A stretch of 64,000 nt of DNA, taken from the sequence record NC_028847.1; one strand, given 5' to 3'. This document shows positions 14,909-63,026 of this stretch, piece after piece (positions within the stretch are counted from its first letter, which is position 1; each line of letters starts with the position of its first letter). Both the position numbers and the translations under genes were made by a program. The notes under the pieces are model-generated. The model was not told the DNA's origin, did not search any database, and saw only the letters and a list, made by a program, of their open reading frames with translations. The DNA comes from Escherichia phage QL01.

Positions 14909-14938
14909 ATAGTACCACATCCTTGTGGTGTTGTAAAC
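14909..14938 (-). promoter_or_regulatory. Early-type promoter (GTTTAC, ~18-nt spacer, TACTAT) for the 96-aa gene
   Basis: Matches T4 early promoter pattern; -35 overlaps stop of alt paralogue A. Confidence 0.45.
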
Positions 14939-17061
14939 TACATTTTGAATTTATTTGATAAAGAAGAGATATCCAAAGACGCGGCAAGGATTTCCATAGC
15001 TTCGTTGCTTTCAGAAACGGATTCATTAACCAAGAATTGACTAAATCCATCCATCAGGCGAACTTCACCAGTTTCCATCAAATGGTCACCATCGTAAACA
15101 GATTCGCTGAGCTCTGAAGGAGGCGTTACGGTAGCTTCCATAAGGTATTTGTGAGATACTCTATCATTCATGGCAAAAGCCGCTACTTTATCAACCTTCA
15201 ACAATAATCCACGCGGAAGGATAATTTCTGCTTCTTCGGCATATTCTGTAAGGTCACCAGGAGCGATAACTTTAACTGCTTCAGCACCTCGAATAACCAT
15301 ACCAATTTCAGCAATTCTATCTGCAGGACCTTCAGGTGCAATTGGATTACCAAACTCGTCTTCTTCCCATTCTACCTCTTCGTCATCGACTTCACCCACA
15401 TCAGATGAACTACCACTAGCCAATTTAAACAACTCATCAGCGGAGGACAAAGAACCTTCACCACCAACAAAAACGGCTTGGTTGTCGAGGGCCATATAAT
15501 TTTTACCGAATTCACCAAAGATGTTAGGCTTTAATGAGGCTGACACAAAGTTCTTAAAGTAAAATGTTTTGTTATCGATATTATGGCGCAGAATTTTGTA
15601 TGGCAAATCCTGACCACGATACAAAATAGTACCCTTAGGAAGTTTAATACCCTTAGTAAATGCTGAGTCTAAATCCTTAATCAATTTAATAGCCGTTGTA
15701 TTGTTTTCGGATTCAGGTTTACCTAAAAGGAATAAGTTCATAGGAGCATATTCAGCCGCGCAATATTCAATAATAGCATTGCTTTCGTCTTTGGTTAGGT
15801 CCTTAGGTTTAATGAGCTCGCCTGAATAAGCATATGCATCACTAATAGAATCGTTAACCAGTTTATAAACGGCTTCCATAGCGAAAGCAATTCTAGATGC
15901 TTTCTCTGAAGGGGAACCCTTAAAACGGGTACTCAGGTTATTAACAATTTTCTTAATAATATCCAGACTATTGGTTGTATTGATTTGCGAAAGGCCACTT
16001 AAAAGTCTATCGACTTCTGTATTAAAAAATGCCATATTATTAGAGTAAATTTCAAACCCTTGTTTATCTCTATTAGCATAATTTAGTTTAAATTTACTAT
16101 CAGTCATTAAAGCGTGTGTGAGAGCAATAGTGTATCTAAAGTTGGCAAGGTCCTCGCTCTTAGATTTAAACTGAGAAGCCTGACGCATTTTAGTAATGGC
16201 ACCTTTTTTAAAGTTCTGACTAATCTGTTCAATACCTTCGTTCTCAGGGCCTTCAGCCGTGTGAACCGGTACAGAAGCTTCAAACTCGTTATAAACCTGC
16301 AATTCTTTAGGGGACAAAGTTTCAGGCTCAGCAGTAGAATACTGCGCGGCCGCAGCCATACGACGCGAAATCTTAGTACGAGAGATAACGGCCTTATCAG
16401 TACGTTTCTCTTCAACTTGTGCAATAGATGCCGCTACGGCTTCTACTTTACTTACGGCCTGGCCTGTTTTCTTAGAAACATACACTTCGCCAACTTTAGA
16501 CTCAACTTTAGTATAAAGATCGGCATTAATTTCAGGCATACCCTTGATATCTTCAATATTAGCACCGCGACGTACTAAAAGAACGTAGGTATGTTTTCCG
16601 CTGAATTGGAACATGTCGTCAACAACTTTAAACTTACCACCGGTACGAGCCATAGCCAAACGAGCTAATACGCGCTGAACGGTAGGACCTTTACCTTTCA
16701 TTTTCTTAGTAGGGAAACGGAATAAAACCGCGTCCATTTTAAGTTTGATTATTTGTTCATATATGGTATCGAAAATGGTGTTCAGTGTACCGAGTGGATC
16801 GGTACCCAAACCACCCTTGAGTTCTGCCGGAGCGCCTTTAGCAGATAAACTCATTAAGATAACATGGACGTACTTATCGCCATTTTTAACCATCTTAATA
16901 GCGTCGCCTTCGGACGCATAAGATACCATACGTGCTACTAAATTGTCATTACCAGGAGCATGTACCGCAAAAATCTGCGGTACGCCTGAGCCAGGTTTAA
17001 GATTTGTTACCGGATAGTTTTTAGCGGAATCGCTATCAAAAACTTCGTTTAAATTTTCCAT
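14938..17061 (-). CDS. alt: Alt-like ADP-ribosyltransferase paralogue A (707 aa)
   Basis: Conserved ~230-aa N-terminal domain with LNE near N-terminus; C-terminal R-S-E motifs (LYRGQ, FVSASL, EAEIILPRG); acidic insertion in catalytic domain. Confidence 0.85.
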   Translation of the reverse strand: MENLNEVFDSDSAKNYPVTNLKPGSGVPQIFAVHAPGNDNLVARMVSYASEGDAIKMVKNGDKYVHVILMSLSAKGAPAELKGGLGTDPLGTLNTIFDTIYEQIIKLKMDAVLFRFPTKKMKGKGPTVQRVLARLAMARTGGKFKVVDDMFQFSGKHTYVLLVRRGANIEDIKGMPEINADLYTKVESKVGEVYVSKKTGQAVSKVEAVAASIAQVEEKRTDKAVISRTKISRRMAAAAQYSTAEPETLSPKELQVYNEFEASVPVHTAEGPENEGIEQISQNFKKGAITKMRQASQFKSKSEDLANFRYTIALTHALMTDSKFKLNYANRDKQGFEIYSNNMAFFNTEVDRLLSGLSQINTTNSLDIIKKIVNNLSTRFKGSPSEKASRIAFAMEAVYKLVNDSISDAYAYSGELIKPKDLTKDESNAIIEYCAAEYAPMNLFLLGKPESENNTTAIKLIKDLDSAFTKGIKLPKGTILYRGQDLPYKILRHNIDNKTFYFKNFVSASLKPNIFGEFGKNYMALDNQAVFVGGEGSLSSADELFKLASGSSSDVGEVDDEEVEWEEDEFGNPIAPEGPADRIAEIGMVIRGAEAVKVIAPGDLTEYAEEAEIILPRGLLLKVDKVAAFAMNDRVSHKYLMEATVTPPSELSESVYDGDHLMETGEVRLMDGFSQFLVNESVSESNEAMEILAASLDISSLSNKFKM

Positions 17062-17064
17062 TAT

Positions 17065-19110
17065 TTACCCTTGGATGAATTTTTCTGGCGTTTCGTCAAA
17101 ATTAATACATGAAGCTAAAATAGGCATTATATCCACCTTGGTCGATTTGACGAATGAATCAAAAGACACAGGGTTGTCGGTCTCTGTTTCTACGCCTTGG
17201 TAAACAACCAATTCGCCGGTTTCCATCAATGCATCACCATCATAGATAACCGCATTTTCTGCTAGTTGGTCTGTGGTCTGGATATCAGCTTCCAATAATT
17301 TGGTGTTGTAGTTTCCTTTATATGAGGCATCTGTAATTTTAGTAATCTTAACAGTAGTTCCACGTGGAAGAATAACCTCTTGTTCTGTTGGAGAACCTGA
17401 CAATTTACCTGGCACAATTACGTTAATAGAGTCTGCACCGGAAATTTTCCAACCGATGTTCATCATTGTATTTTCGGAACTCGTCAGCATACTTGGAAGA
17501 ACAATTTCATTATCGCCTTGGAAAGATGTCCCAGCGCGATAGTCCTGATGAACTGCGGCCATTGCGACGTTTGATACCCAGCCGCCAAAGATAATCGGCT
17601 TAAGGGACGTTGATACATAGTTCCTGAAATAAAACAATTTTGAGTGTTTGATTTTATCAAAAGTGTTAACATTTAAATATTGACCACGCCAAAGTGTAAT
17701 ATCAGGTGGCAATTTATGGCCAATTTCAAATGCTGCATCCATATCATTAATTACTTCAATTACACGATAACTATCAATAAATTCTGCATCCTCTTCATAA
17801 TAATTACCCAACAAATAATTATTAACATCGGTATAATATTGGCCACAATAAGAAGAAATAGCCTCACGCTGCTCATACTCAAATCGATTATCGCTATAAC
17901 TGGCTGTAAAATGCATAACACTTTCTGACGCTTCATTAGCAAAGTCGGTAACAGCAGCACTTATACGTTGAGCATACTCTTGTTCCCAAAGCTCTGCTGC
18001 ATATTCTGCCGCATCCATATTAGGAGGAGCCTCATTCATTTTTCTTTCAATAAATGCAGCTTTGCGAAGGTTAAGAACCTCTGCACATGATTCGGCAAAA
18101 ATCTGCATCTGCTTCATACTGCCGACAGGAGCACGTTTAAGTTCACGATGCATACGGTTAAAAATTGGGTCAGAGTCTTCGACTCGAATTTCTTCTTTCC
18201 AAACACCGTTTGCTCGCATAGCCATATCTGCCGCGCGCATACGCTCCATAGTATTCGTTTCAGAAGGTTGAATAAAAATTTCTAGTTCTTCATAATCATC
18301 GATAAGTTCCGCTGTTGCTGGGGCACTAAATTTTGATGCCTCTGCATCAATCTCATTCCAACCTTCCGGAACTTCATCTCGAGGAGAATACTGGGCTGCG
18401 GCTACAGCACGCCTAGAAATCTTAGTAGTAGTAATAACGGCCTTATCCGTACGTTTTTCTTCGACTGCCGCTATACTAGCAGATAGTGCTTCTATTTTGG
18501 TTACCGATTGGCCTGTTTTCTTGGATACATAAACCTCACCAACTTTAGACTCAACCTTAGTGTAAAGGTCTGCATCAATTTCAGGCATACCTTTTATGTC
18601 CTCAATATTAGCTTGTTTACGGACCAGTAAAACGTATGTATGTTTGCCTGTAAATTGATACATATCATCGACAACTTTAAACTTGCCGCCAGTACGAGCC
18701 ATCGCCAAACGTGCCAATACACGTTGAACAGTAGGACCCTTACCTTTCATTTTCTTGGTAGGGAACCGGAAAAGAACTGCATCCATTTTAAGTTTGTTTA
18801 CTTGTTCGTATACAGTATCAAAAATGGTATTCAGCGTACCAAGTGGGTCAGAACCTAACCCACCTTTCAACTCGGCTGGGCTACCCTTAGCAGACAAACT
18901 CATCAAAATAACATGAACATATTTGTCGCCCGGCTTAACCATTTTAATAGCGTCTCCTTGAGACGCATAAGATACCATACGAGCAACCAGATTATCATTA
19001 CCTGGTGCTTGGATAGAGAAAATCTGTGGAATACCGGAACCCGGTTTAAGATTTGTTACTGGATAGTTTTTAGCGGAATCACTATCAAAAACCTCATTTA
19101 AATTTTCCAT
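17065..19110 (-). CDS. alt: Alt-like ADP-ribosyltransferase paralogue B (681 aa)
   Basis: N-terminal ~230 aa nearly identical to A; divergent middle; ART motifs LWRGQ, YVSTSL, EQEVILPRG. Confidence 0.85.
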   Translation of the reverse strand: MENLNEVFDSDSAKNYPVTNLKPGSGIPQIFSIQAPGNDNLVARMVSYASQGDAIKMVKPGDKYVHVILMSLSAKGSPAELKGGLGSDPLGTLNTIFDTVYEQVNKLKMDAVLFRFPTKKMKGKGPTVQRVLARLAMARTGGKFKVVDDMYQFTGKHTYVLLVRKQANIEDIKGMPEIDADLYTKVESKVGEVYVSKKTGQSVTKIEALSASIAAVEEKRTDKAVITTTKISRRAVAAAQYSPRDEVPEGWNEIDAEASKFSAPATAELIDDYEELEIFIQPSETNTMERMRAADMAMRANGVWKEEIRVEDSDPIFNRMHRELKRAPVGSMKQMQIFAESCAEVLNLRKAAFIERKMNEAPPNMDAAEYAAELWEQEYAQRISAAVTDFANEASESVMHFTASYSDNRFEYEQREAISSYCGQYYTDVNNYLLGNYYEEDAEFIDSYRVIEVINDMDAAFEIGHKLPPDITLWRGQYLNVNTFDKIKHSKLFYFRNYVSTSLKPIIFGGWVSNVAMAAVHQDYRAGTSFQGDNEIVLPSMLTSSENTMMNIGWKISGADSINVIVPGKLSGSPTEQEVILPRGTTVKITKITDASYKGNYNTKLLEADIQTTDQLAENAVIYDGDALMETGELVVYQGVETETDNPVSFDSFVKSTKVDIMPILASCINFDETPEKFIQG

Positions 19111-19113
19111 TAT

Positions 19114-21198
19114 TTACCCTTGGATGAATTTTTCTGGGATGTCATAGAGGTCTATGCATGAAGCCAAAAGAGGCAGTACATCAAACCGTGTAGATTTAAC
19201 AAATGAATCAAAAGATAAGGGGCTTTCGGAAGTATCGAAGTCATCTTGATATACGACCAACTCGCCGGTTTCCATTAGTACATCACCATCATATACCACA
19301 GATTCTTGAAGCTCATCTGTTGTCATAACTTCAGCTTGAATGAGTTTTGTATTACTAGATGTTGTTCCATCATTATTAGAAGCATCTGTTATTTTATTAA
19401 CTTTGACCATTAATCCACGCGGTAGAATAACTTCGGCTTCAGTTGCTATTCCGAGATTTCCTGGATATACGACATTAACTTTATGGGCCCCATCAATAGC
19501 CCATCCTATTTGAACTTTAACATAATCAGGATTTTCTTTATATGCTCTTATTTCATTAGGATTAATAGTTATTCCTTCTTCATTTTTATCGACTGTCAAT
19601 TCATTGCGAACTTCAGGTTCTAAAAGACCGATACCAGCGTGCGTAACACCAAAACGTCCGAAAATTATAGGGGTCAATGAAGTGGATACAAAATTTCTAA
19701 AATAAAACACTTTATTTTTAACTAGTGCTTCGTATATAGGAGCAGTCATACTCTGGGCACGATAAACTGTGATGCCCTCTGGTATACGGTCGCCATTTTC
19801 AAAAGCAGAATCCAAATTATTAACTGCAGATTCGATATCTTTTTCGCTCATAACCTCATAGTTCTGAGGATTATAACGTCCTAAAAGAAGATTATTTATG
19901 TCTGTATATCCTGAACCACAATATTCTCTGATACCACGCTTTTGTGATGGAGTATATTTAGAACCCTCACGAGCAATAGTAATATCGACCATAATACCGC
20001 CACCTACACCAGCAAAACTATACACGCGTTTTTTAATGAACTTGGTCTTGGCCGCTTTCCACTTGGCCTCTGTCAATTCGTTCCAAAGGTCATCAGGTTG
20101 GCCTTTACGGGTTCTGTTATGAATAGCCAGCCACTCGCCTTTGTATTCTTCGAAAATGGTATTAATAGTAGAGGCATATTTTTCTAGGGCTTTAACAGAT
20201 GTCAAAGGTTCGTTTTTGATGGCCGTAAGGATTTTCTCTTTAATTTTCTCTTGGATTTCGCCAATACCGTGAAGTGGGAACAATTTGTAATCGTAATGCA
20301 ATTCTTCAGCAGTGCCTTCAGCCACTATATTAGCAACCTTATTTTTAGCCGCAGGAGAATTGTTATTAGTAACCATTTCCTGAGCCTCAGGGATTAATGG
20401 AACTGTTGCCGGTTTATTAAAATCTACTGCAGTAGCTTCATATTTCTTAAACAGCTCACTTTCATTACGATAAGATTCTAACGATTGACTTGCTGCAATG
20501 GCACGTCGAGAAATCTTAGTCTTGGTTATAACCATTTTATCAGTGCGACGTTCTTCAACCTTAGCAATACTACCGGCAATAGCAGTTTCTTTAGTAACCT
20601 GCATGCCTTCTTTTTTGGAAATATAAACTTCGCCGACATCAGAATCTACCTTAGTATACAATTCAGCATTAATTCCAGGCATACCTTTGATATCTTCTAT
20701 ATCAGCTTGTTTACGAACTACCAGGATGTAAGTATGTTTACCGGTAAATTGGTACATAGCCGGAACTACTTTAAAACGTCCACCTGTTTTCTGTGCTACC
20801 AAACGTTGGATAATCCGTTGAACGATAGGGCCTTGACCTTTCATTTTCTTAGTAGGGAAACGGAACATCACGGCATCCATACGAAGCTTTTTAACTTGGT
20901 CATAAACCACATCAAAAATAGTATTAATCGCATCTACGGGAGTAGGGCCTAGGCCACCTTTAAGTTCGGCAGGCGAACCTTTAGCTGAAAGGCTCATAAG
21001 GATAACGTGGGCATATTTATCACCCATCTTAACCTGTTTAATAGCATCACCTTCAGAAGCGTAGGATACCATACGCGCCACTAATTGGGATTCTGCGTCA
21101 CCAATCTTCCAAATCTGGGGTACTTTAAGTTTTGGGTTCAAGTTTACTGTAGGCAGTGTGCCTTCGGACTCAAACACTTCATTTAATTGTTCGGTCAT
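19114..21198 (-). CDS. alt: Alt-like ADP-ribosyltransferase paralogue C (694 aa)
   Basis: Same architecture; ART motifs VYRAQ, FVSTSL, EAEVILPRG; C-terminal tail shared with B (SFDSFVKST...PEKFIQG). Confidence 0.85.
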   Translation of the reverse strand: MTEQLNEVFESEGTLPTVNLNPKLKVPQIWKIGDAESQLVARMVSYASEGDAIKQVKMGDKYAHVILMSLSAKGSPAELKGGLGPTPVDAINTIFDVVYDQVKKLRMDAVMFRFPTKKMKGQGPIVQRIIQRLVAQKTGGRFKVVPAMYQFTGKHTYILVVRKQADIEDIKGMPGINAELYTKVDSDVGEVYISKKEGMQVTKETAIAGSIAKVEERRTDKMVITKTKISRRAIAASQSLESYRNESELFKKYEATAVDFNKPATVPLIPEAQEMVTNNNSPAAKNKVANIVAEGTAEELHYDYKLFPLHGIGEIQEKIKEKILTAIKNEPLTSVKALEKYASTINTIFEEYKGEWLAIHNRTRKGQPDDLWNELTEAKWKAAKTKFIKKRVYSFAGVGGGIMVDITIAREGSKYTPSQKRGIREYCGSGYTDINNLLLGRYNPQNYEVMSEKDIESAVNNLDSAFENGDRIPEGITVYRAQSMTAPIYEALVKNKVFYFRNFVSTSLTPIIFGRFGVTHAGIGLLEPEVRNELTVDKNEEGITINPNEIRAYKENPDYVKVQIGWAIDGAHKVNVVYPGNLGIATEAEVILPRGLMVKVNKITDASNNDGTTSSNTKLIQAEVMTTDELQESVVYDGDVLMETGELVVYQDDFDTSESPLSFDSFVKSTRFDVLPLLASCIDLYDIPEKFIQG

Positions 21199-21436: not shown

Positions 21437-22960
21437 TTATAGACCAGTTTGAGACCAATCACCGAATACATCTTCAAATGTATCAGCTTCTGTTTTATCG
21501 AAACGCCAACCTTTAATAATTGGAAGGAAAATACCTACAGTATCGGTACGTCCTTTAGAATGAACCCAACCATTACATTCACAGTCGGCAATACGGCCAA
21601 TCAATTTACCTTCACGAGCTTGTTTCATAAGAAGTTCACGGTCTAAATCAGGCCGGTCTTCCAATGGAATCAATACCTTTTTACCTGATTTATCTTTCTT
21701 ATGGGTGGTATCTTTAAAGCCTGAACCACAGTCACTTGTAATTCGACGACAACGTGATACTAATTCAACACCACCAAGTTTGTTAGGGTCCTTCGAGTGT
21801 TCATAATAACCTACTACTTCTAAAGCAATATCGATTACTTCTTTGAACTTGATAAGATTCTTAGAACGGCGGTTTTCCCAGTAGGAGTCCATGTTCTTAA
21901 GGATAATACCTTCCAGACCTTGGTCGACATATTTCTTATAAACGACTTTAGCTTCTTCAAGATTATTAACCCACTGGTTTTCGATAGCTTCAACACGCGT
22001 TGTGCCATGCAATACGACATTATGAGCCACCATAAGTTCTAAGGCTGTAAAGCGTACATCATACTTATCACCTTTAATTTTGCCTTCAGAATACACGACA
22101 TCCAGTGGGACATAATCCCATGCCTGTAATACCATACCAGCGGCTTCAGATGGGGTGATAGTTCCTTGAAGAGCCTTATTAGCCAATCCATTTGACGTAG
22201 AACGATCGGCGACAGTTTGGAATTCTTTGGCTTTACTTAATTCAGGAAGTTCCTCGTCAAACATACTAAACAAATCATTAGATGCTTTAGGTTCAACTTT
22301 AGGAGTATGGTAAACTAATTCGCCATCAATCATAACGCCATTAGGATGACGTTGACGAGCTTCTTCGGTCATCGCCATTAATTCAGCAGCTAAAAGATGA
22401 AGCCCTTGGTATTCATTACCACCACGAGTAAGGAATGTCACACCATCGTTACGAACTTCGGCAAAACAACGAGCACCATCAGCTTTTAATTGAGCAAACG
22501 CTGGCCATTTAATATTTTTCTTAATCAAAGCTTCATCATAAGAACTCGCCAACATCTGCTGTTGTTCAGGGATTAAACCTTTCCAAACCTTGTTAGCAAT
22601 AGAAATCGATGCACCACATTCAAGGTCGCGCATCATTACACGACGTAATACCTCGGCATCCGGGGCCTTAGCATCAGCAATGATTTGAGCCAGTTCTTCA
22701 ATAGCCGCATTACCCGTAATCTTACGTGTGGCTAATGTGAATTCAGCGAAATCAAGAAGGTCCTCAAGAGTAATCATACCAAAGGATTGAGATGTAAATC
22801 CAGGTTCTGGCCACTTTTTAATACCGTAGTTCAGACGACGGGTATAAGCCATACGATAAACACGTTTCAGAAGCTCATTGTCCTTTTCACGAGCAATAAT
22901 GGCTTCTTTAGCTTTAGTAGAATCAATAGCAGCAATTTCGTTTAAAATATCTAAAATCAT
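21437..22960 (-). CDS. 30: ATP-dependent DNA ligase gp30
   Basis: MILDILNEIAAIDSTKAKEAI... matches recalled T4 ligase N-terminus; KADGAR adenylation motif; start at internal ATG with SD GAGGTGATT. Confidence 0.9.
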   Translation of the reverse strand: MILDILNEIAAIDSTKAKEAIIAREKDNELLKRVYRMAYTRRLNYGIKKWPEPGFTSQSFGMITLEDLLDFAEFTLATRKITGNAAIEELAQIIADAKAPDAEVLRRVMMRDLECGASISIANKVWKGLIPEQQQMLASSYDEALIKKNIKWPAFAQLKADGARCFAEVRNDGVTFLTRGGNEYQGLHLLAAELMAMTEEARQRHPNGVMIDGELVYHTPKVEPKASNDLFSMFDEELPELSKAKEFQTVADRSTSNGLANKALQGTITPSEAAGMVLQAWDYVPLDVVYSEGKIKGDKYDVRFTALELMVAHNVVLHGTTRVEAIENQWVNNLEEAKVVYKKYVDQGLEGIILKNMDSYWENRRSKNLIKFKEVIDIALEVVGYYEHSKDPNKLGGVELVSRCRRITSDCGSGFKDTTHKKDKSGKKVLIPLEDRPDLDRELLMKQAREGKLIGRIADCECNGWVHSKGRTDTVGIFLPIIKGWRFDKTEADTFEDVFGDWSQTGL

Positions 22961-22970
22961 AATCACCTCA

Positions 22971-23249
22971 TTAGTCATGGATTCTATTATAAGCCACATC
23001 AGCCAAAAGCAAGTCTAATCGCTTATGATAAGAGAACACAAATCTCATTCGCCCATCAGATTTGAACTTGGACATAAAGTGGACATAAATGAATCCCTGT
23101 TCGACGCATTCGCGCCAAACAGGATGGTCTTTAGCCGGATTTACATCAAATGAGTAATCATGATTCACATGACGAATAAACTGGTTTACATGACCATAAT
23201 CCATTGTAGTGGTAGGACCATAGTCTGAAATTGTATGAACTACAAACAT
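22971..23249 (-). CDS. Hypothetical protein (30.1 position)
   Basis: 92 aa from ATG with SD GAGGT immediately after upstream stop. Confidence 0.5.
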   Translation of the reverse strand: MFVVHTISDYGPTTTMDYGHVNQFIRHVNHDYSFDVNPAKDHPVWRECVEQGFIYVHFMSKFKSDGRMRFVFSYHKRLDLLLADVAYNRIHD

Positions 23250-24344: not shown

Positions 24345-24549
24345 CTTTGACACTTATAATTTCGACATCAGCCCAATGACCATAACCAGGTAGACGGTCT
24401 TCAATAGATAATCCGCCATCAGATTTCAGCATTTTAATTGTTTTAGTATATGGTTCATCTTGTGGATGCACAGGAGATAAATCAGTTACACGATAAGTCA
24501 CTTCGACCATTTCCGTACCTAATAATTTCTGAATCAATTTCTTAAACAT
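24337..24549 (-). CDS. Hypothetical small protein
   Basis: 70-aa ORF, tightly packed. Confidence 0.5.
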   Translation of the reverse strand: MFKKLIQKLLGTEMVEVTYRVTDLSPVHPQDEPYTKTIKMLKSDGGLSIEDRLPGYGHWADVEIISVKDV

Positions 24550-24550
24550 A

Positions 24551-24745
24551 TTATCCTCGCTTTAAACATTTGATTACAGACAGTTCACCGCCCATGCGAA
24601 CGTCTTCAGTTCCATCGACCCATAAGACGGTGTAGGCTTCTTTAATAGTAACATTACCTAATTTAAAAGCAGGTAGAACCTTGGAAATCATTCCAGGAAT
24701 ACCTACACCTTTTAACTGAACCGTTTGCGATAAGAATAATTTCAT
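24551..24745 (-). CDS. Hypothetical small protein
   Basis: 64-aa ORF. Confidence 0.5.
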   Translation of the reverse strand: MKLFLSQTVQLKGVGIPGMISKVLPAFKLGNVTIKEAYTVLWVDGTEDVRMGGELSVIKCLKRG

Positions 24746-24746
24746 G

Positions 24747-25043
24747 TTAGCCTCGGTATTTCATTTGGAAGCAATGCTGCTCGTCACATTCAATAAAGAA
24801 CTTGCGGTCTGCAGCAGAAATAATAATTCGTTCATCTTGACGGGCGTCCGTTTTGATAGATTTCATATCATAAGACACTTTATCATACGGTATATAGATT
24901 TTATACACGTCGCCATTCTGGGCGAAATCAACACGGAATAGCTCTAGACCTATTAAATCAGTTACAAGACTGTTTATAGCATAGAACCCGTCAAGCTGGC
25001 TAGTAGGCAAACAGTACCATTTACCTTCAATAAACTCTAACAT
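24747..25043 (-). CDS. Hypothetical protein
   Basis: Track ORF begins at TTG; first ATG gives 98 aa (MLEFIEGKWY...). Confidence 0.5.
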   Translation of the reverse strand: MLEFIEGKWYCLPTSQLDGFYAINSLVTDLIGLELFRVDFAQNGDVYKIYIPYDKVSYDMKSIKTDARQDERIIISAADRKFFIECDEQHCFQMKYRG

Positions 25044-25051
25044 AATTAACC

Positions 25052-25339
25052 TCAATATCTCATCTGAAAGCCGTGTGATTTAACATTACCACCATAGATG
25101 TCAGAGGTATTGACTTCACGGGCGACACTTGGGTCGATATTGATATCATGGTTGAGCTTAGTGATTGCTAGGGTATCACGACCATTAACAGTACGGAATT
25201 CTACCGGGCATACAACATCAGCATAGGCCTTAATAGATTCACGAGTGGGTTGTTTGTCGGCAGGAACGTCTTTACCTGCTTTAGAGAAAACAACTTCACA
25301 GAAATTTTTACGAGTATCAAAATAAGTGGTCATAAACAT
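25052..25339 (-). CDS. Hypothetical protein
   Basis: Start at internal ATG preceded by SD GAGGAAAATATT; the upstream in-frame ATG lies inside an intercistronic hairpin. Confidence 0.5.
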   Translation of the reverse strand: MFMTTYFDTRKNFCEVVFSKAGKDVPADKQPTRESIKAYADVVCPVEFRTVNGRDTLAITKLNHDINIDPSVAREVNTSDIYGGNVKSHGFQMRY

Positions 25340-25354
25340 AATATTTTCCTCAAA

Positions 25355-25370
25355 GGAGGCCGAAGCCTCC
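25355..25370 (-). other. Intercistronic CUUCGG-tetraloop RNA hairpin
   Basis: GGAGGC-CGAA-GCCTCC (minus strand GGAGGCUUCGGCCUCC) between a stop codon and the next RBS; identical copy at 63002-63017. Confidence 0.6.
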
Positions 25371-25380
25371 ATTTTTAAGA

Positions 25381-25746
25381 TTAGATGTCGAATTCATTCA
25401 GAACTACATCAAAGATTGCTTCCAGGTGTTCAGGTTTAGCTCGGTTGCTCAGGATGTGACGAATCCAAGTTTTAACCAGAAGCTTACGATTAACACCGTT
25501 CCAGCAAGGATGGGTACCTAAATCACGTTGACGGAAATCATCATCTAAAGCGATTTTAAAAGTAGAACCTTCCATTGTGATTGAAACCGTAATACCATTT
25601 TCAAAGCGCATATAAACGTAGTTAGGAGTCATGCACTGTTCGATTTCGCACACCGCGCCGTTGTTGTGTTTCCACAGGCAAATAACTTCAGAAGAACCAG
25701 CGATACCGTTAGAAACATATTTACGTTCGAAGTTGATGTAGTTCAT
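25381..25746 (-). CDS. Hypothetical protein
   Basis: 121-aa ORF; SD GGAGAATAAA; preceded by promoter/stem-loop cassette. Confidence 0.55.
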   Translation of the reverse strand: MNYINFERKYVSNGIAGSSEVICLWKHNNGAVCEIEQCMTPNYVYMRFENGITVSITMEGSTFKIALDDDFRQRDLGTHPCWNGVNRKLLVKTWIRHILSNRAKPEHLEAIFDVVLNEFDI

Positions 25747-25776
25747 TTTATTCTCCAGTTTGTTTTCGTATTATTT

Positions 25777-25817
25777 GGTACAGGTCTATAATAACACAAC
25801 CTGTACCAAAGTAAAAC
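25777..25817 (-). promoter_or_regulatory. Promoter-early-stem-loop (PeSL)-like cassette
   Basis: 9-bp inverted repeat GGTACAGGT/ACCTGTACC whose loop carries a -10-like TATTAT, with GTTTTAC -35-like element 17 nt upstream. Confidence 0.45.
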
Positions 25818-25819
25818 AT

Positions 25820-26152
25820 TTATTTCACAACATTCCAATTTTTCATATCAAGTTTACCAACTTTTTTCATCTGAGCAATCAGACGTTCAGCACGTGTACG
25901 GGCATTAACATAATAGAATTCACCATTTTTGTTTTCTTCAATACGACCAGTAATTACAGTTTTCAGTTCATAAATCCAACCTGTAAAGAAGTTGTGAAGC
26001 TCGATGGTGAATGTAAAATCAGTACCCATACCTTCAGTTGTTTCAACTTCGATGATATCACCTTCAACTGCAGTCAGGACCCACATGGTTTCTTGATATT
26101 CACCGTTGAAACATTTAGCTTTAACAGATGCATTCAGATTTACAGTTTTCAT
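25820..26152 (-). CDS. Hypothetical protein
   Basis: 110-aa ORF; 5' leader nearly identical to that of the gene at 25381..25746. Confidence 0.55.
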   Translation of the reverse strand: MKTVNLNASVKAKCFNGEYQETMWVLTAVEGDIIEVETTEGMGTDFTFTIELHNFFTGWIYELKTVITGRIEENKNGEFYYVNARTRAERLIAQMKKVGKLDMKNWNVVK

Positions 26153-26193
26153 TTTATTCTCCAGTTTGTTTTAGTATTATTTGGTACATGTCT

Positions 26194-26222
26194 ATAGTAT
26201 CATGCCTACCGGAGATGTACAC
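26194..26222 (-). promoter_or_regulatory. Early-type promoter (GTGTAC, 17 nt, TACTAT)
   Basis: Spacing matches T4 early promoters; directly downstream of a terminator hairpin. Confidence 0.45.
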
Positions 26223-26244
26223 CCTTTTTTAAAGATTTAGAAAC

Positions 26245-26270
26245 AAAAATGGGACTCCGAAGAGTCCCAT
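26245..26270 (-). terminator. Rho-independent terminator after the 53-aa basic-protein gene
   Basis: GGGACTC-CGAA-GAGTCCC; minus strand hairpin followed by AUUUUUGUUU. Confidence 0.6.
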
Positions 26271-26273
26271 AAC

Positions 26274-26435
26274 TTATGCCTGAGGCTTACCAAAGCAAGC
26301 AGCATCTGCACGCAATACTGCACGAGCACGAGCTTGAAGCTTATCAACTACCTGATTGATACGCTTGTTGGACGCACGCTTGTAACCAGCGCGTTTAGAG
26401 GTACCGTCAACTACTTTAACTTCTTTCTTAGCCAT
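26274..26435 (-). CDS. Small highly basic protein (53 aa)
   Basis: MAKKEVKVVDGTSKRAGYKRASNKRINQVVDKLQARARAVLRADAACFGKPQA; own promoter, long leader and terminator; under 60 aa so absent from ORF track. Confidence 0.5.
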   Translation of the reverse strand: MAKKEVKVVDGTSKRAGYKRASNKRINQVVDKLQARARAVLRADAACFGKPQA

Positions 26436-26590
26436 TTTAAATCTCTTAAATTAGGATGCAGGACTTATTGGCGTTGCCTGCGCAAGCCCTCAAGGGGAAC
26501 ATAGGTTTCGGATATTTAACGACAGGATAACCATAAACCTCGTCATCATACCAACCACGACTTAGACAGATAACCTTTTTCTGACGCGTG

Positions 26591-26609
26591 ATAGTACAAA
26601 ATACATTCA
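26591..26609 (-). promoter_or_regulatory. Early-type promoter (GTGTAC, 17 nt, TACTAT) heading a ~150-nt leader for the 53-aa gene
   Basis: Same hexamers and spacing as the promoter at 26194-26222. Confidence 0.4.
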
Positions 26610-26697
26610 AGAGGTACACCGTAAAACTGTTGGGGTCTTAAAACTATAATGATTCGCAAATCATTAATCAAACAGTTCGACGGCTCCTCGATTTAAC

Positions 26698-26946
26698 TTA
26701 CTTCAGGGTAATAATAAAATGACGTACTGCTTTACGAGCTGCTGAAGCCAAAGGCTTAGCAAATTTCAGTTCATCTTTAGCTTCCAGTTCAGCAGCCAGA
26801 GTAGCCTGAGCAGGATTCAGATGTTTGAAATAACGCAGGATTTCCAGTGCTTCGGCCTCAACATCAATAGATGCGCCGTAGTTTTCGTGACCGTTGTTCC
26901 AAGCGTTGCGTTGCAGTTCAAGAGCGTGATTCAATTGTTTGTTCAT
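26698..26946 (-). CDS. rIII: rIII lysis-inhibition accessory protein
   Basis: 82 aa (T4 rIII is 82 aa); immediately upstream of gene 31 as in T4; sequence not independently recalled. Confidence 0.55.
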   Translation of the reverse strand: MNKQLNHALELQRNAWNNGHENYGASIDVEAEALEILRYFKHLNPAQATLAAELEAKDELKFAKPLASAARKAVRHFIITLK

Positions 26947-27092
26947 TTTAGTTTCTCAATTCGAGATAAAGATTGGTGGACACGTTCTTCTGAATTTCAC
27001 TTCCTTTCGGCAAGTCTCTCAGTTGTAGTCCACCGCTTAGGATTCTCCGGTTAACTAACTAGTCCGGCAGCCAATCCATATTATTATTTATA

Positions 27093-27416
27093 TCACTTAT
27101 AAAGGCAAGGAATAGCTTTATAGTGACAGGTAACGAATTTTTGTTTAATTTCTTTAGGTTGTTTAATACCCAATGCAACCAACGGATGAGGCACGTTAGC
27201 AATCTTACCAACAGGAAGTGGAGTCAAATCGCCTACTTCACAAAAATCTTCAGGGACATCAGGTCCTACAGAATAAATTTCACAAAGTTCAGGGATTTCA
27301 CCTTGATGAAGTTTGCCAATAACGATACCAGATGCAGTAGTTTCTTCATCACCGGCTTGTTTTGGTTCGGAAACGAGAATAACATATTCTCCGACCGCTT
27401 TAATAGGAAGTTCCAT
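27093..27416 (-). CDS. 31: Co-chaperonin gp31 (GroES-like)
   Basis: 107 aa (T4 gp31 is 111 aa); GroES-like N-terminus; position. Confidence 0.8.
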
Positions 27417-27474
27417 ATTTAATCCATATTGTTTTGTTGATAGATTAATAATAACACGCTATTCTTAAAGCATA

Positions 27475-27774
27475 TTACAGGACAAGCAGAGTTTCAGTCT
27501 GAAGGCCGTTAATAGAAATCAGCTTATCGAAACGGAATGAGCGCCAATCATTAACCTTGGTATCAAATACTCTGATATAATTAACAGGTTCTTTATTGGC
27601 TTCTGGCCCAGGGGCCTGGACTTCTTTATACGGCAGCAGGTCTAAGTCGCGAGTACAAGTCATACGACGGGCACTACCATCAGCTTTTTCAAACAGGACT
27701 TCGTGAAAACCAACAGACAAAATAGTCTTGACTTTTTCACGGAGACGAATAGTTTCTTGTTCGGTTAAAATCAT
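27475..27774 (-). CDS. Hypothetical protein (31.1 position)
   Basis: 99-aa ORF. Confidence 0.55.
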   Translation of the reverse strand: MILTEQETIRLREKVKTILSVGFHEVLFEKADGSARRMTCTRDLDLLPYKEVQAPGPEANKEPVNYIRVFDTKVNDWRSFRFDKLISINGLQTETLLVL

Positions 27775-33292: not shown

Positions 33293-33321
33293 ATACTAAC
33301 ACGTCATGAGGAGATGTAAAC
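33293..33321 (-). promoter_or_regulatory. Early-type promoter (GTTTAC, 17 nt, TAGTAT) upstream of alc
   Basis: Canonical spacing. Confidence 0.45.
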
Positions 33322-40521: not shown

Positions 40522-40556
40522 AGGCTATAGTATCACTACCATAGCCTGGTGTAAAC
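40522..40556 (-). promoter_or_regulatory. PeSL-like cassette (GTTTAC, 18 nt, TACTAT; AGGCTAT/ATAGCCT stem)
   Basis: Early promoter hexamers with inverted repeat spanning the -10. Confidence 0.45.
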
Positions 40557-58128: not shown

Positions 58129-58157
58129 ATAGTACCATGTTTAAAGCAGAAGTAAAC
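58129..58157 (-). promoter_or_regulatory. Early promoter for motA (GTTTAC, 17 nt, TACTAT)
   Basis: Canonical T4 early promoter spacing. Confidence 0.5.
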
Positions 58158-59772: not shown

Positions 59773-59926
59773 TTTTAATCGTCTTAAGTAAACCGACAAA
59801 AGTAGAAAGAACCCAACCAATAAGCAGAAAACTTAAGAATATCGGACCAGGGGCCCACACACCTAAAAAGAAGCAAACTGAACAGACTATAGCCATAATA
59901 AGTTCAATAAAAACTAGGATAACCAT
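59765..59926 (-). CDS. Small membrane protein (53 aa), possibly ac-like
   Basis: MVILVFIELIMAIVCSVCFFLGVW...; SD GAGGAAAAT; lies between stp and gene 52 where T4 has ac. Confidence 0.4.
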   Translation of the reverse strand: MVILVFIELIMAIVCSVCFFLGVWAPGPIFLSFLLIGWVLSTFVGLLKTIKND

Positions 59927-59936
59927 ATTTTCCTCA

Positions 59937-60014
59937 TTAGCGTCCGAAGACGCCTTTAGTTTTAAGATTGTTACGATAGAACTGCATCACATGCTCGTTA
60001 TGGAAATTACTCAT
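59937..60014 (-). CDS. stp: Stp peptide (25 aa)
   Basis: [25 protein letters not shown] matches my recollection of T4 Stp except for the last residue; ATG overlaps ndd stop (TAATG); coding sequence contains a GCGUCUUCGGACGC hairpin. Confidence 0.8.
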
Positions 60015-62799: not shown

Positions 62800-62989
62800 C
62801 GAAATAAGAAATACGAACCTCTAAACAATGAGCATAAGCGCCCATCGCATCCAGTTGTGCAATCAGTAACCCTTGTTGACGGATATCAAGAGTTTCAAAA
62901 ACACCACCTTCAATAAAGGTTTCTAGTGCGTTAATTTTAAGAACCAACTGGTCGTATTCTTCAACTACACGTGCTTGGTAACCTAACAT
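62792..62989 (-). CDS. Hypothetical protein
   Basis: 65-aa ORF; SD GAGGAATT; preceded by CUUCGG hairpin. Confidence 0.45.
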   Translation of the reverse strand: MLGYQARVVEEYDQLVLKINALETFIEGGVFETLDIRQQGLLIAQLDAMGAYAHCLEVRISYFGE

Positions 62990-63001
62990 AATTCCTCATT
63001 A

Positions 63002-63017
63002 GGAGGCCGAAGCCTCC
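63002..63017 (-). other. Intercistronic CUUCGG-tetraloop hairpin, identical to the copy at 25355-25370
   Basis: GGAGGC-CGAA-GCCTCC between rIIB stop and the next RBS. Confidence 0.6.
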
Positions 63018-63026
63018 GTTATTGAT

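Follow-up and report, generated by a model that had tools for sequence, protein, structure and literature searches.

Why should two neighbouring phage genes that encode unrelated proteins carry almost the same leader? The original prediction, made from a 64-kb stretch of DNA (the window), held that a near-identical leader of ~40 nt in front of two small genes is part of a duplicated promoter-early-stem-loop (PeSL) cassette. We examined the anatomy of the two copies, their counterparts in related phages and the fate of the gene enclosed between them.

The locus and its genes

The 3-kb stretch around the duplication is 99% identical to the Dhakavirus genomes LQ5, IME281, Bp7 and WG01 and to those of the IME08 group. 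Judged by this sequence, the phage is a T-even of the genus Dhakavirus, and at this locus lie the signals that govern early expression of 30.8 and 30.7. According to the annotation of IME08, the order on the minus strand, read from right to left, is 31, rIII, 30.9, 30.8, 30.7, 30.6 ... 30, and the ORF list of the window places every gene at the locus on the minus strand. The features of the region are collected in Table 1.

Table 1. Features of the 30.8/30.7 region (positions refer to the window)
Feature	Position	Strand	Basis
Gene 30.9 homologue, 53 aa, upstream of cassette A	26274..26435	-	ORF list; IME08 annotation; phrog_1427 4e-27
Intrinsic terminator after 30.9, stem-loop part of cassette A	26240..26270 (hairpin 26249-26270)	-	Terminator scan, inverted repeat, fold
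P30.8: -35 GTGTAC, 17-nt spacer with TGn (ends TGA), -10 TACTAT	26194..26222	-	Pattern scan
Repeat copy A: -10 region, ~40-nt leader, GGAG Shine-Dalgarno, ATGAA of 30.8	26148..26202	-	Family D12
GGAGAATAAAA of 30.8: Shine-Dalgarno and exact RegB/S1 target match	26152..26162	-	Consensus scan
Gene 30.8, T4-type allele, 110 aa, between the repeat copies	25820..26152	-	Pfam PF06019 (Phage_30_8) 6e-48
P30.7: -35 TTTTAC/TTTACT, TGn, -10 TATTAT	25788..25816	-	Promoter scan, pattern scan
12-bp perfect inverted repeat TTTGGTACAGGT/ACCTGTACCAAA around the P30.7 -10 box, stem-loop of cassette B	25774..25810	.	Fold
Repeat copy B (D12 reference): -10 region, ~40-nt leader, GGAG Shine-Dalgarno, ATGAA of 30.7	25742..25796	-	
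GGAGAATAAAA of 30.7: Shine-Dalgarno and exact RegB/S1 target match	25746..25756	-	Consensus scan
Gene 30.7, 121 aa	25381..25746	-	Pfam PF06919 (Phage_T4_Gp30_7) 1.5e-51

The products of the two genes had been described as showing no obvious similarity, and this holds: BLASTP found none between gp30.8 and gp30.7 (E=25), profile-profile comparison of 8- and 9-sequence alignments gave a probability of 0.09%, and the proteins belong to separate Pfam and PHROG families. A tblastn survey located 30.7 in 993 phage records and 30.8 in 1,034, with differing host distributions; among the T-even genera sampled, gp30.7 was 91-100% identical at the protein level. A plus-strand ORF antisense to 30.8 (25760-26197, 145 aa, TTG start) was rejected as unsupported, the minus-strand ORFs being those that match Pfam families. 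An Rfam scan of 24500-27500 with E up to 1 returned zero matches. The conserved spacer between rIII and 30.9 gave a weak consensus fold (-5.7 kcal/mol), which was set aside.

A duplicated leader in front of 30.8 and 30.7

Two copies of the 38-nt pattern GTACCAAATAATACKAAAACAAACTGGAGAATAAAATG, and no more, are present in the window (25744-25781 and 26150-26187), each on the minus strand; from 100 shuffles, none would be expected. The two cores differ at one base and are embedded in an ungapped repeat of 55 nt, 25742-25796 versus 26148-26202, in which 51/55 positions match (93% identity). These values confirm the near-identical leader that had been noticed in front of the two genes. Read along the coding strand, each copy extends from a promoter's -10 region across the leader of ~40 nt as far as GGAGAATAAAATGAA, and in both the Shine-Dalgarno sequence and the start codon are arranged as GGAG-N6-ATG. 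The cassettes form a direct repeat with a spacing of 406 bp.

Within the window, the long common leader is restricted to the 30.8/30.7 pair. Since an exact-pattern scan of IMG/VR with the 38-nt leader retrieved just 5 contigs, this leader variant is clade-restricted and was not found before other genes. The likeness that extends from the -10 box to about +15 is generic, because about 13 early promoters of the window have it.

Promoters and stem-loops of the two cassettes

The pattern scan identified these early promoters, about 13 on the minus strand of the window, by their common form TAnnAT-AGACCTATCAACTAA. P30.8 belongs to a repeat family of early promoters with 9 copies in the window (D3), and the AT-rich sequence TTTCTAAATCTTTAAAAAA precedes it, between the terminator and the -35 element. 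With 8/12 matches to the Escherichia coli consensus it falls under the threshold of a generic sigma70 scan; it was called from the T4-type pattern and from orthology. P30.7, which has orthologous promoters in T4, RB69 and SP18, was read as TTTACT-16-TATTAT with TGn by the promoter scan and as TTTTAC-17-TATTAT by the pattern scan. It begins 3 nt past the stop codon of 30.8, which sits in GAAATAAATG. For the palindromic TATAAT in 25785-25795, the promoter scan called no promoter on the plus strand.

Cassette A has a terminator hairpin upstream and none over the promoter, an arrangement that goes beyond the original prediction. The terminator, a canonical one past the stop codon of 30.9, consists of a 9-bp stem, AUGGGACUC/GAGUCCCAU, with a UUCG loop and a U5 tail. 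The 30.8 copy itself has only an imperfect 9-nt inverted repeat, with 89% complementarity, which does not fold significantly (z = -1.2).

In cassette B, the inverted repeat spans the promoter spacer and the first transcribed bases, with arms at 25774-25785 and 25799-25810. One copy had been predicted to carry a 9-bp inverted repeat with the -10 element in its loop. The 13-nt loop, TGTGTTATTATAG on the coding strand, does contain the -10 hexamer TATTAT; the stem, however, is 12 bp long, not 9. Folded as RNA, the hairpin has a free energy of -18.8 kcal/mol (z = -4.8), and 0/200 shuffled sequences were as stable. It is not a canonical intrinsic terminator, because it is followed by AAAUAAUAC and has no U tract.

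Both leaders end in a RegB/S1 consensus

Strong intergenic RegB/S1 sites conform to the consensus GGAGRAYARAA (PMC1702504, Durand et al. 2006; PMC3014915, Uzan and Miller 2010). The window contains 4 matches versus 0.39 expected, all of which adjoin early promoters, and both leaders end in such a site, another feature that had not been foreseen. The Shine-Dalgarno sequence of the T4 30.7 mRNA is a standard experimental substrate of RegB and is cleaved (PMC9409239, citing Truncaite et al. 2006). Most of the lineages examined, T4, RB69, SP18, JD18 and Cronus among them, have retained the 13 nt GGAGAATAAAATG in front of both genes. This part of the likeness is therefore explained by function, not by recent duplication. 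In the predicted fold of the copy B transcript the RegB site is unpaired; the GGAG of copy A pairs with an upstream U-rich sequence in one fold that includes read-through RNA.

Probable homogenisation of the leaders in some lineages

To compare the leader cores, we left out the 13 nt GGAGAATAAAATG. Within a genome, the two cores were 94-100% identical in Dhakavirus, 77% in RB69, 74% in JD18, 62% in Cronus, 59% in SP18 and 53% in T4, and orthologous cores were 50-82% alike between genera. The Dhakavirus leader is 82% identical to the 30.7 leader of SP18 and 80% identical to the 30.8 leader of RB69. In the Klebsiella Jiaodaviruses both copies have another, lineage-specific leader, GTACCACCCAAAC, and VR5 has a mosaic 30.7 copy whose Shine-Dalgarno sequence differs.

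The near-identical duplicated leader is thus a Dhakavirus feature that is found in part in RB69 and Jiaodavirus and that T4 lacks. Since the two leaders of T4 agree at just 53%, the near-identity is of recent date and no ancestral trait. The simplest reading of these comparisons is an old pair of related cassettes that would have been homogenised repeatedly by gene conversion, most fully in Dhakavirus.

Replacement, deletion and insertion of genes at the cassettes

Compared with IME08, the window is 99-100% identical over 27490-26150 and 25808-25090 and ~50% identical across 26150-25810. The divergent tract coincides with the 30.8 ORF, from approximately the third codon to a few bases beyond the stop. 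It represents two alleles, a T4-type of 110 aa in the window and an RB-type of 122 aa in IME08, IME341 and C6, whose proteins are 38% identical. In IME341, the longer allele lies between the same two leaders, which are 443 bp apart versus 406. The spacing is of the T4 type in about two thirds of the 43 Dhakavirus-like records and of the RB type in one third, and both alleles also occur in Gaprivervirus (VR5 versus SP18 and VR20). This allele swap does not by itself prove that the cassettes are specially recombinogenic, because ordinary homologous recombination in the conserved flanks suffices to account for it.

Gene 30.8 is absent from five Mosigvirus-type records, TuIa (AJ621579), AV109, PTE-Eco05, SQ17 and JM10, in which 30.9, the terminator and P30.8 are followed directly by 30.7. 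The junction in TuIa, AV109 and PTE-Eco05 lies within GGAGAATAAAATGAAC, with the entire 30.8-type leader retained. That of SQ17 lies within TATAGACTTGTACCA, immediately past the -10 box, and that of JM10 at the -10 box, where the leader that comes next is of the Dhakavirus type. As read from the aligned sequences, the three junction types represent three independent recombination events, all within the repeated cassette. Junctions in this position are what recombination between two flanking PeSLs predicts. STML-198 likewise has no 30.8. We also sought the deletion in the 43 Dhakavirus-like records, whose repeats are the most alike, and found none; all keep 30.8.

Genes have been inserted as well. 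In C6 and SP18, an additional ORF of 116-118 aa (30.6A-like) follows the 30.9 terminator and precedes a second terminator and P30.8; in JD18, Roth16, EcS1 and a Karamvirus, one or two ORFs of 160-176 aa separate 30.8 from P30.7. Comparison of the gene content of T4-like relatives, which had been put forward as a check, thus reveals shuffling in the form of the 30.8 swap, deletions and insertions. The contrary case, repeats confined to this pair without shuffling in relatives, fails because the relatives show it.

The hairpin at P30.7 is conserved in structure

We surveyed the P30.7 hairpin in 10 lineages of Tevenvirinae (genera and one unclassified Klebsiella phage). It was significant in 10/10, with z from -2.6 to -6.6; the nine P30.8-type regions examined were unstructured (z from -1.7 to +0.06). 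T4, RB69, SP18 and Dhakavirus all have GGTACAGG-N15-CCTGTACC, and because the stem sequence is invariant there is no covariation in this group. Elsewhere the stem is UUGGGUGGU/ACCACCCAA with an inner stem (JD18), 12 bp long and CUGAUUGAGUGU (EcS1), 14 bp long with one G.U pair (phi1_146055) or GGGUUAU (Cronus). Karamvirus and Gelderlandvirus have CUCCGUUGUAU, whose pairing partner is the region of the Shine-Dalgarno sequence itself. In variants of L018 and phi1_146055, pairing is kept only via G.U.

Transcripts that start at P30.7 lack the 5' arm, and the hairpin can therefore form solely on read-through RNA. On such RNA it could act as an attenuator, as a 3' stabiliser or, in some genera, as a mask of the ribosome-binding site. 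The P30.7 hairpin appears to stand in for a terminator where the space for one is missing. In the small sample offered by the window, the three promoters that follow a canonical terminator have no such hairpin and several that abut the upstream ORF have one; at the promoter at 33321, the 3' arm of the hairpin is the Shine-Dalgarno sequence.

A model for the paired cassettes

We think it likely that the locus consists of paired T4-type early cassettes with a RegB leader, which serve as portable homology for the exchange of 30.8. Genes 30.8 and 30.7 each have their own T4-type sigma70 early promoter, composed of an AT-rich tract, a -35 element near TTTACW and a TGn-extended TAYWAT. Transcription would probably start ~7 nt past the -10, in the box CNTGTACC, and both mRNAs would thereby receive an essentially identical leader of ~40 nt ending in GGAGAATAAAAUG, that is, in the ribosome-binding site and the 11-nt RegB/S1 target. 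Because the leader ends in both signals, the two messages would be translated immediately and later shut off jointly by RegB. The start site, the strength of the promoters and cleavage by RegB are here extrapolated from T4. Insulation from upstream transcription would be provided by the terminator hairpin in the 30.8 cassette and, in the 30.7 cassette, which has no spare intergenic space, by the 12-bp hairpin. As direct repeats, the cassettes would offer portable homology, and the 30.8 ORF that they enclose would be replaced or lost through recombination inside them. The near-identity of the leaders in the Dhakavirus lineage would be due to gene conversion between the two cassettes.

Could the repeats instead be passive? 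The leaders would then be alike by selection for the same signals, exchange would be ordinary homologous recombination in the flanking genes, and the cassettes would have no role in shuffling. The presence of GGAGAATAAAATG before both genes in most lineages examined agrees with this, as do the TATAGACC-type sequence past the -10 in about 13 early promoters of the window and the long, fully homologous flanks on both sides of the allele swap. Yet the central ~22 nt of the leader, AAATAATACKAAAACAAACT, hold no known signal and vary between genera, and even so they are 94-100% identical within Dhakavirus genomes; the Jiaodaviruses have a different lineage-specific leader in both copies; and the three independent deletions of 30.8 join inside the cassette, not in the flanking genes. 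We therefore consider passive repeats unlikely. A common origin of the genes themselves is scarcely credible. If 30.8 and 30.7 were ancient tandem paralogues, gene and leader would have been duplicated together and the coding parts would have diverged while the regulatory part was conserved. The genes are indeed neighbours of similar size in the same orientation, and both begin with ATGAA below similar upstream regions. The sequence and profile comparisons of the proteins and their separate families speak against kinship, however, and the divergence of the T4 leaders makes the near-identity recent.

The inverted repeat at P30.7 might be thought to function as DNA, either as an operator for a dimeric protein or as a cruciform that shuts the promoter, and not as an RNA hairpin. 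Its half-sites, GGTACAGG/CCTGTACC, are invariant in T4, RB69, SP18 and Dhakavirus and flank the -10 box, so that a protein bound there would stand in the way of RNA polymerase. But JD18, EcS1, phi1_146055 and Cronus keep a hairpin there with unrelated sequences, the 3' arm in Karamvirus and Gelderlandvirus is the Shine-Dalgarno sequence itself, and the pairs kept through G.U in L018 and phi1_146055 work in RNA, not in DNA. Since outside the T4 group it is pairing that is conserved and not sequence, sometimes via G.U, an operator becomes less likely, and we regard a DNA element as very improbable. The model of paired cassettes may be carried further, though only tentatively and with more doubt than confidence. 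Across Tevenvirinae the P30.7 hairpin might have a dual use: as DNA it would be a strong early promoter, and in read-through RNA it would end or stabilise the upstream message and, in some genera, mask the ribosome-binding site of 30.7. In all 10 lineages it would be structure, not sequence, that selection has kept, as a substitute for a terminator wherever intergenic space is lacking; the Dhakavirus leaders would be kept alike by continuing conversion, and 30.8 would be released as a circular cassette.

Significance

The idea that small promoter/stem-loop cassettes mark the points where accessory genes are exchanged among T4-type phages is based on a few phage pairs. The present locus is a compact and well-sampled natural test of it, with one ORF between two cassettes, a replacement, three deletions and several insertions. 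It is a clear natural example of a gene-shuffling mechanism that has already been proposed; neither the kind of element nor the mechanism is new, and current understanding is unchanged by the finding. What is new is that the whole leader shows lineage-restricted homogenisation, that both copies match the RegB consensus exactly, that the deletions have three types of junction, each inside the cassette, and that the hairpin around the -10 box is conserved as a structure. The link between a shuffling module and the RegB switch implies that a shuffled gene would inherit an early promoter together with a shut-off signal. The results may be of use in annotating promoters and leaders of Dhakavirus and in designing insertion sites in engineered T-even phages.

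Comparison with known systems

The locus is the known 30.8/30.7 early regulatory region of T4 treated by Truncaite et al. in 2006, an identity that the original prediction had not noted. That work (Virology 344:378), cited in PMC9409239 and PMC1702504, is said to deal with the T4 early regulatory region 30.8-30.3, upstream of the ligase gene 30, and reportedly describes, for 16 T4-type phages, a conserved terminator, early promoters, stem-loop and RegB sites. The T4 region and the window agree in gene order, in the terminator after 30.9 and in the early promoters and GGAG RegB sites before 30.8/30.7; they differ in that the T4 leaders are just 53% alike outside the Shine-Dalgarno sequence. In keeping with this account, the TuIa record, AJ621579, from the same laboratory, annotates a stem-loop, a -35/-10 and a ribosome-binding site before 30.7. 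As in RegB/S1 sites of T4 early mRNAs, the exact consensus lies in the translation initiation region of an early gene, here as a predicted target in both leaders.

The hairpin at P30.7 resembles the 'promoter inside a hairpin' control of T4 gene e (PMC3014915) in that the 5' arm lies upstream of the proximal start and is present in read-through RNA only. It differs in that the proximal promoter is early, not late, and in that the 3' arm in the window ends ~25 nt before the Shine-Dalgarno sequence, so that the ribosome-binding site is not sequestered. In P30.7 of Karamvirus and Gelderlandvirus and in the window promoter at 33321, the 3' arm is the Shine-Dalgarno sequence, a further likeness to this control.

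Another close parallel is the PeSL. The main text of Arbiol et al. (2010, PMC2839356) defines it by a stop codon located upstream within AT-rich sequence, then a -35/-10 of sigma70-like type, a stem-loop, and finally a Shine-Dalgarno sequence with start codon, and places the stem-loops of phi1/RB49 mostly between -35 and -10 or over the -10. That of Comeau et al. (2014, PMC4122927) describes a T4/PST class with the stem-loop just 5' of the promoter and the consensus TTTACW-N17-TAYWAT. Neither of the two papers refers to this locus, to JS98 or to RB69 in its main text and figure legends. P30.8 and P30.7 both fit the consensus, with one mismatch, in the -35 of copy A. Judged by these descriptions, copy B, with its stem-loop over the -10 box, has the phi1/RB49 layout, and copy A, in which the terminator hairpin and AT-rich tract are followed by GTGTAC-N17-TACTAT, has the PST/T4 layout. 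Both copies contain a sigma70-like promoter, an AT-rich region, a stem-loop and a Shine-Dalgarno sequence with start codon; the stop-codon/AT-rich element is represented by TTTCTAAATCTTTAAAAAA in copy A and by the 30.8 stop in copy B, 3 nt before the -35. PeSLs are repeated elements concentrated among small non-essential ORFs, and the window holds about 13 early-promoter cassettes on its minus strand, this pair lying within the 31-to-30 cluster of small ORFs without known function. Break-points also fall as in PeSLs: the allele swap is bounded by the copies, the deletions have three junction types, and the insertions lie beside stem-loops or promoters. The PeSL model has recombination between neighbouring cassettes yield encapsidated mini-circles; the natural deletions of 30.8 would be the expected reciprocal product, which is not proof of a circle. 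The copies depart from the published descriptions in the stem of copy B, which is of the GGTACAGG type and not G-tract/C-tract or AGNA/TCNT, and in having the entire transcribed leader in common, well past the generic promoter consensus. With both copies fitting published layouts and with shuffling in relatives, the identification of the pair as PeSL cassettes is supported.

Early promoters around 30.8 and 30.7

The 30.8 promoter of SP18 has the same -35 box and spacer, GTGTACAACAGGGTT, as the 30.7 promoter of Cronus. This shared sequence indicates that promoter halves have been transferred between the 30.8 and 30.7 positions in different genera. About 10% of a 3-kb query around 30.8/30.7 was left uncovered by the closest genomes.

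Besides the 30.7 promoter, four early promoters of the window are predicted to have hairpins that hold the -10 box in their loop (see the table). At the one with its -35 box at 33321, the spacer CTCCTCAT pairs with the Shine–Dalgarno region ATGAGGAG, so that the ribosome-binding site would be masked only on read-through RNA, that is, on upstream transcripts crossing the promoter. No hairpin of this kind was present at 58157, 41558 or 26222, the three promoters in the window that have a canonical terminator upstream.

Features in the window
Feature	Position	Strand	Remarks
Early promoters with hairpin, -10 box in loop	-35 at 40556, 33321, 32030, 60541	minus	
Intercistronic modules	25341-25373, 59925-59957, 62988-63020		GC hairpin, UUCG loop, then TTTGAGGAAAATATT + ATG
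102-aa ORF	24747-25055	minus	phrog_28157 (3e-67), unknown function
Three tandem paralogous genes (681-707 aa)	14938-17061, 17065-19110, 19114-21198	minus	
DNA ligase gene 30	21437-22999		
Probable non-coding block (~260 nt)	26436-26700		between rIII and 30.9

Intercistronic modules and neighboring genes

The intercistronic modules listed in the table form a family. A module of this type was found 3' of gene 30.7 in every genus examined, and among these genera its stem was always compensated in sequence (GGAGGC, GGGGC, GGGCC and others). Comparison with T4, RB69 and SP18 identified the mechanically called 106-aa ORF at 25052-25372 as an over-extended 30.6 homologue, its surplus codons being the hairpin plus Shine–Dalgarno module. 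By the same comparison, the true start is assigned to ATGTTTATG at 25339, which gives a predicted protein of 95 aa (phrog_2153). The 102-aa ORF, which sits between the 30.6 and 30.5 homologues, is missing in IME08.

Each of the three tandem paralogues carries a Pfam ADP-ribosyltransferase exoenzyme domain and is Alt-like; together they appear as repeat families D1/D2 (≈ 2.05-kb spacing, 67-81% identity). They lie a few hundred bases past the ligase gene.

The block between rIII and 30.9

A scan of 24500-27500 against Rfam gave no match for this block, and its consensus fold was weak. The sequence is nearly identical among T4, RB69, SP18 and the window and contains a sigma70-like site (TTGATT-17-TATAGT). 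Since indels break the frame, the block is probably not protein-coding. SP18, JD18 and Cronus have an additional conserved insert of ≈ 170 nt at this position.
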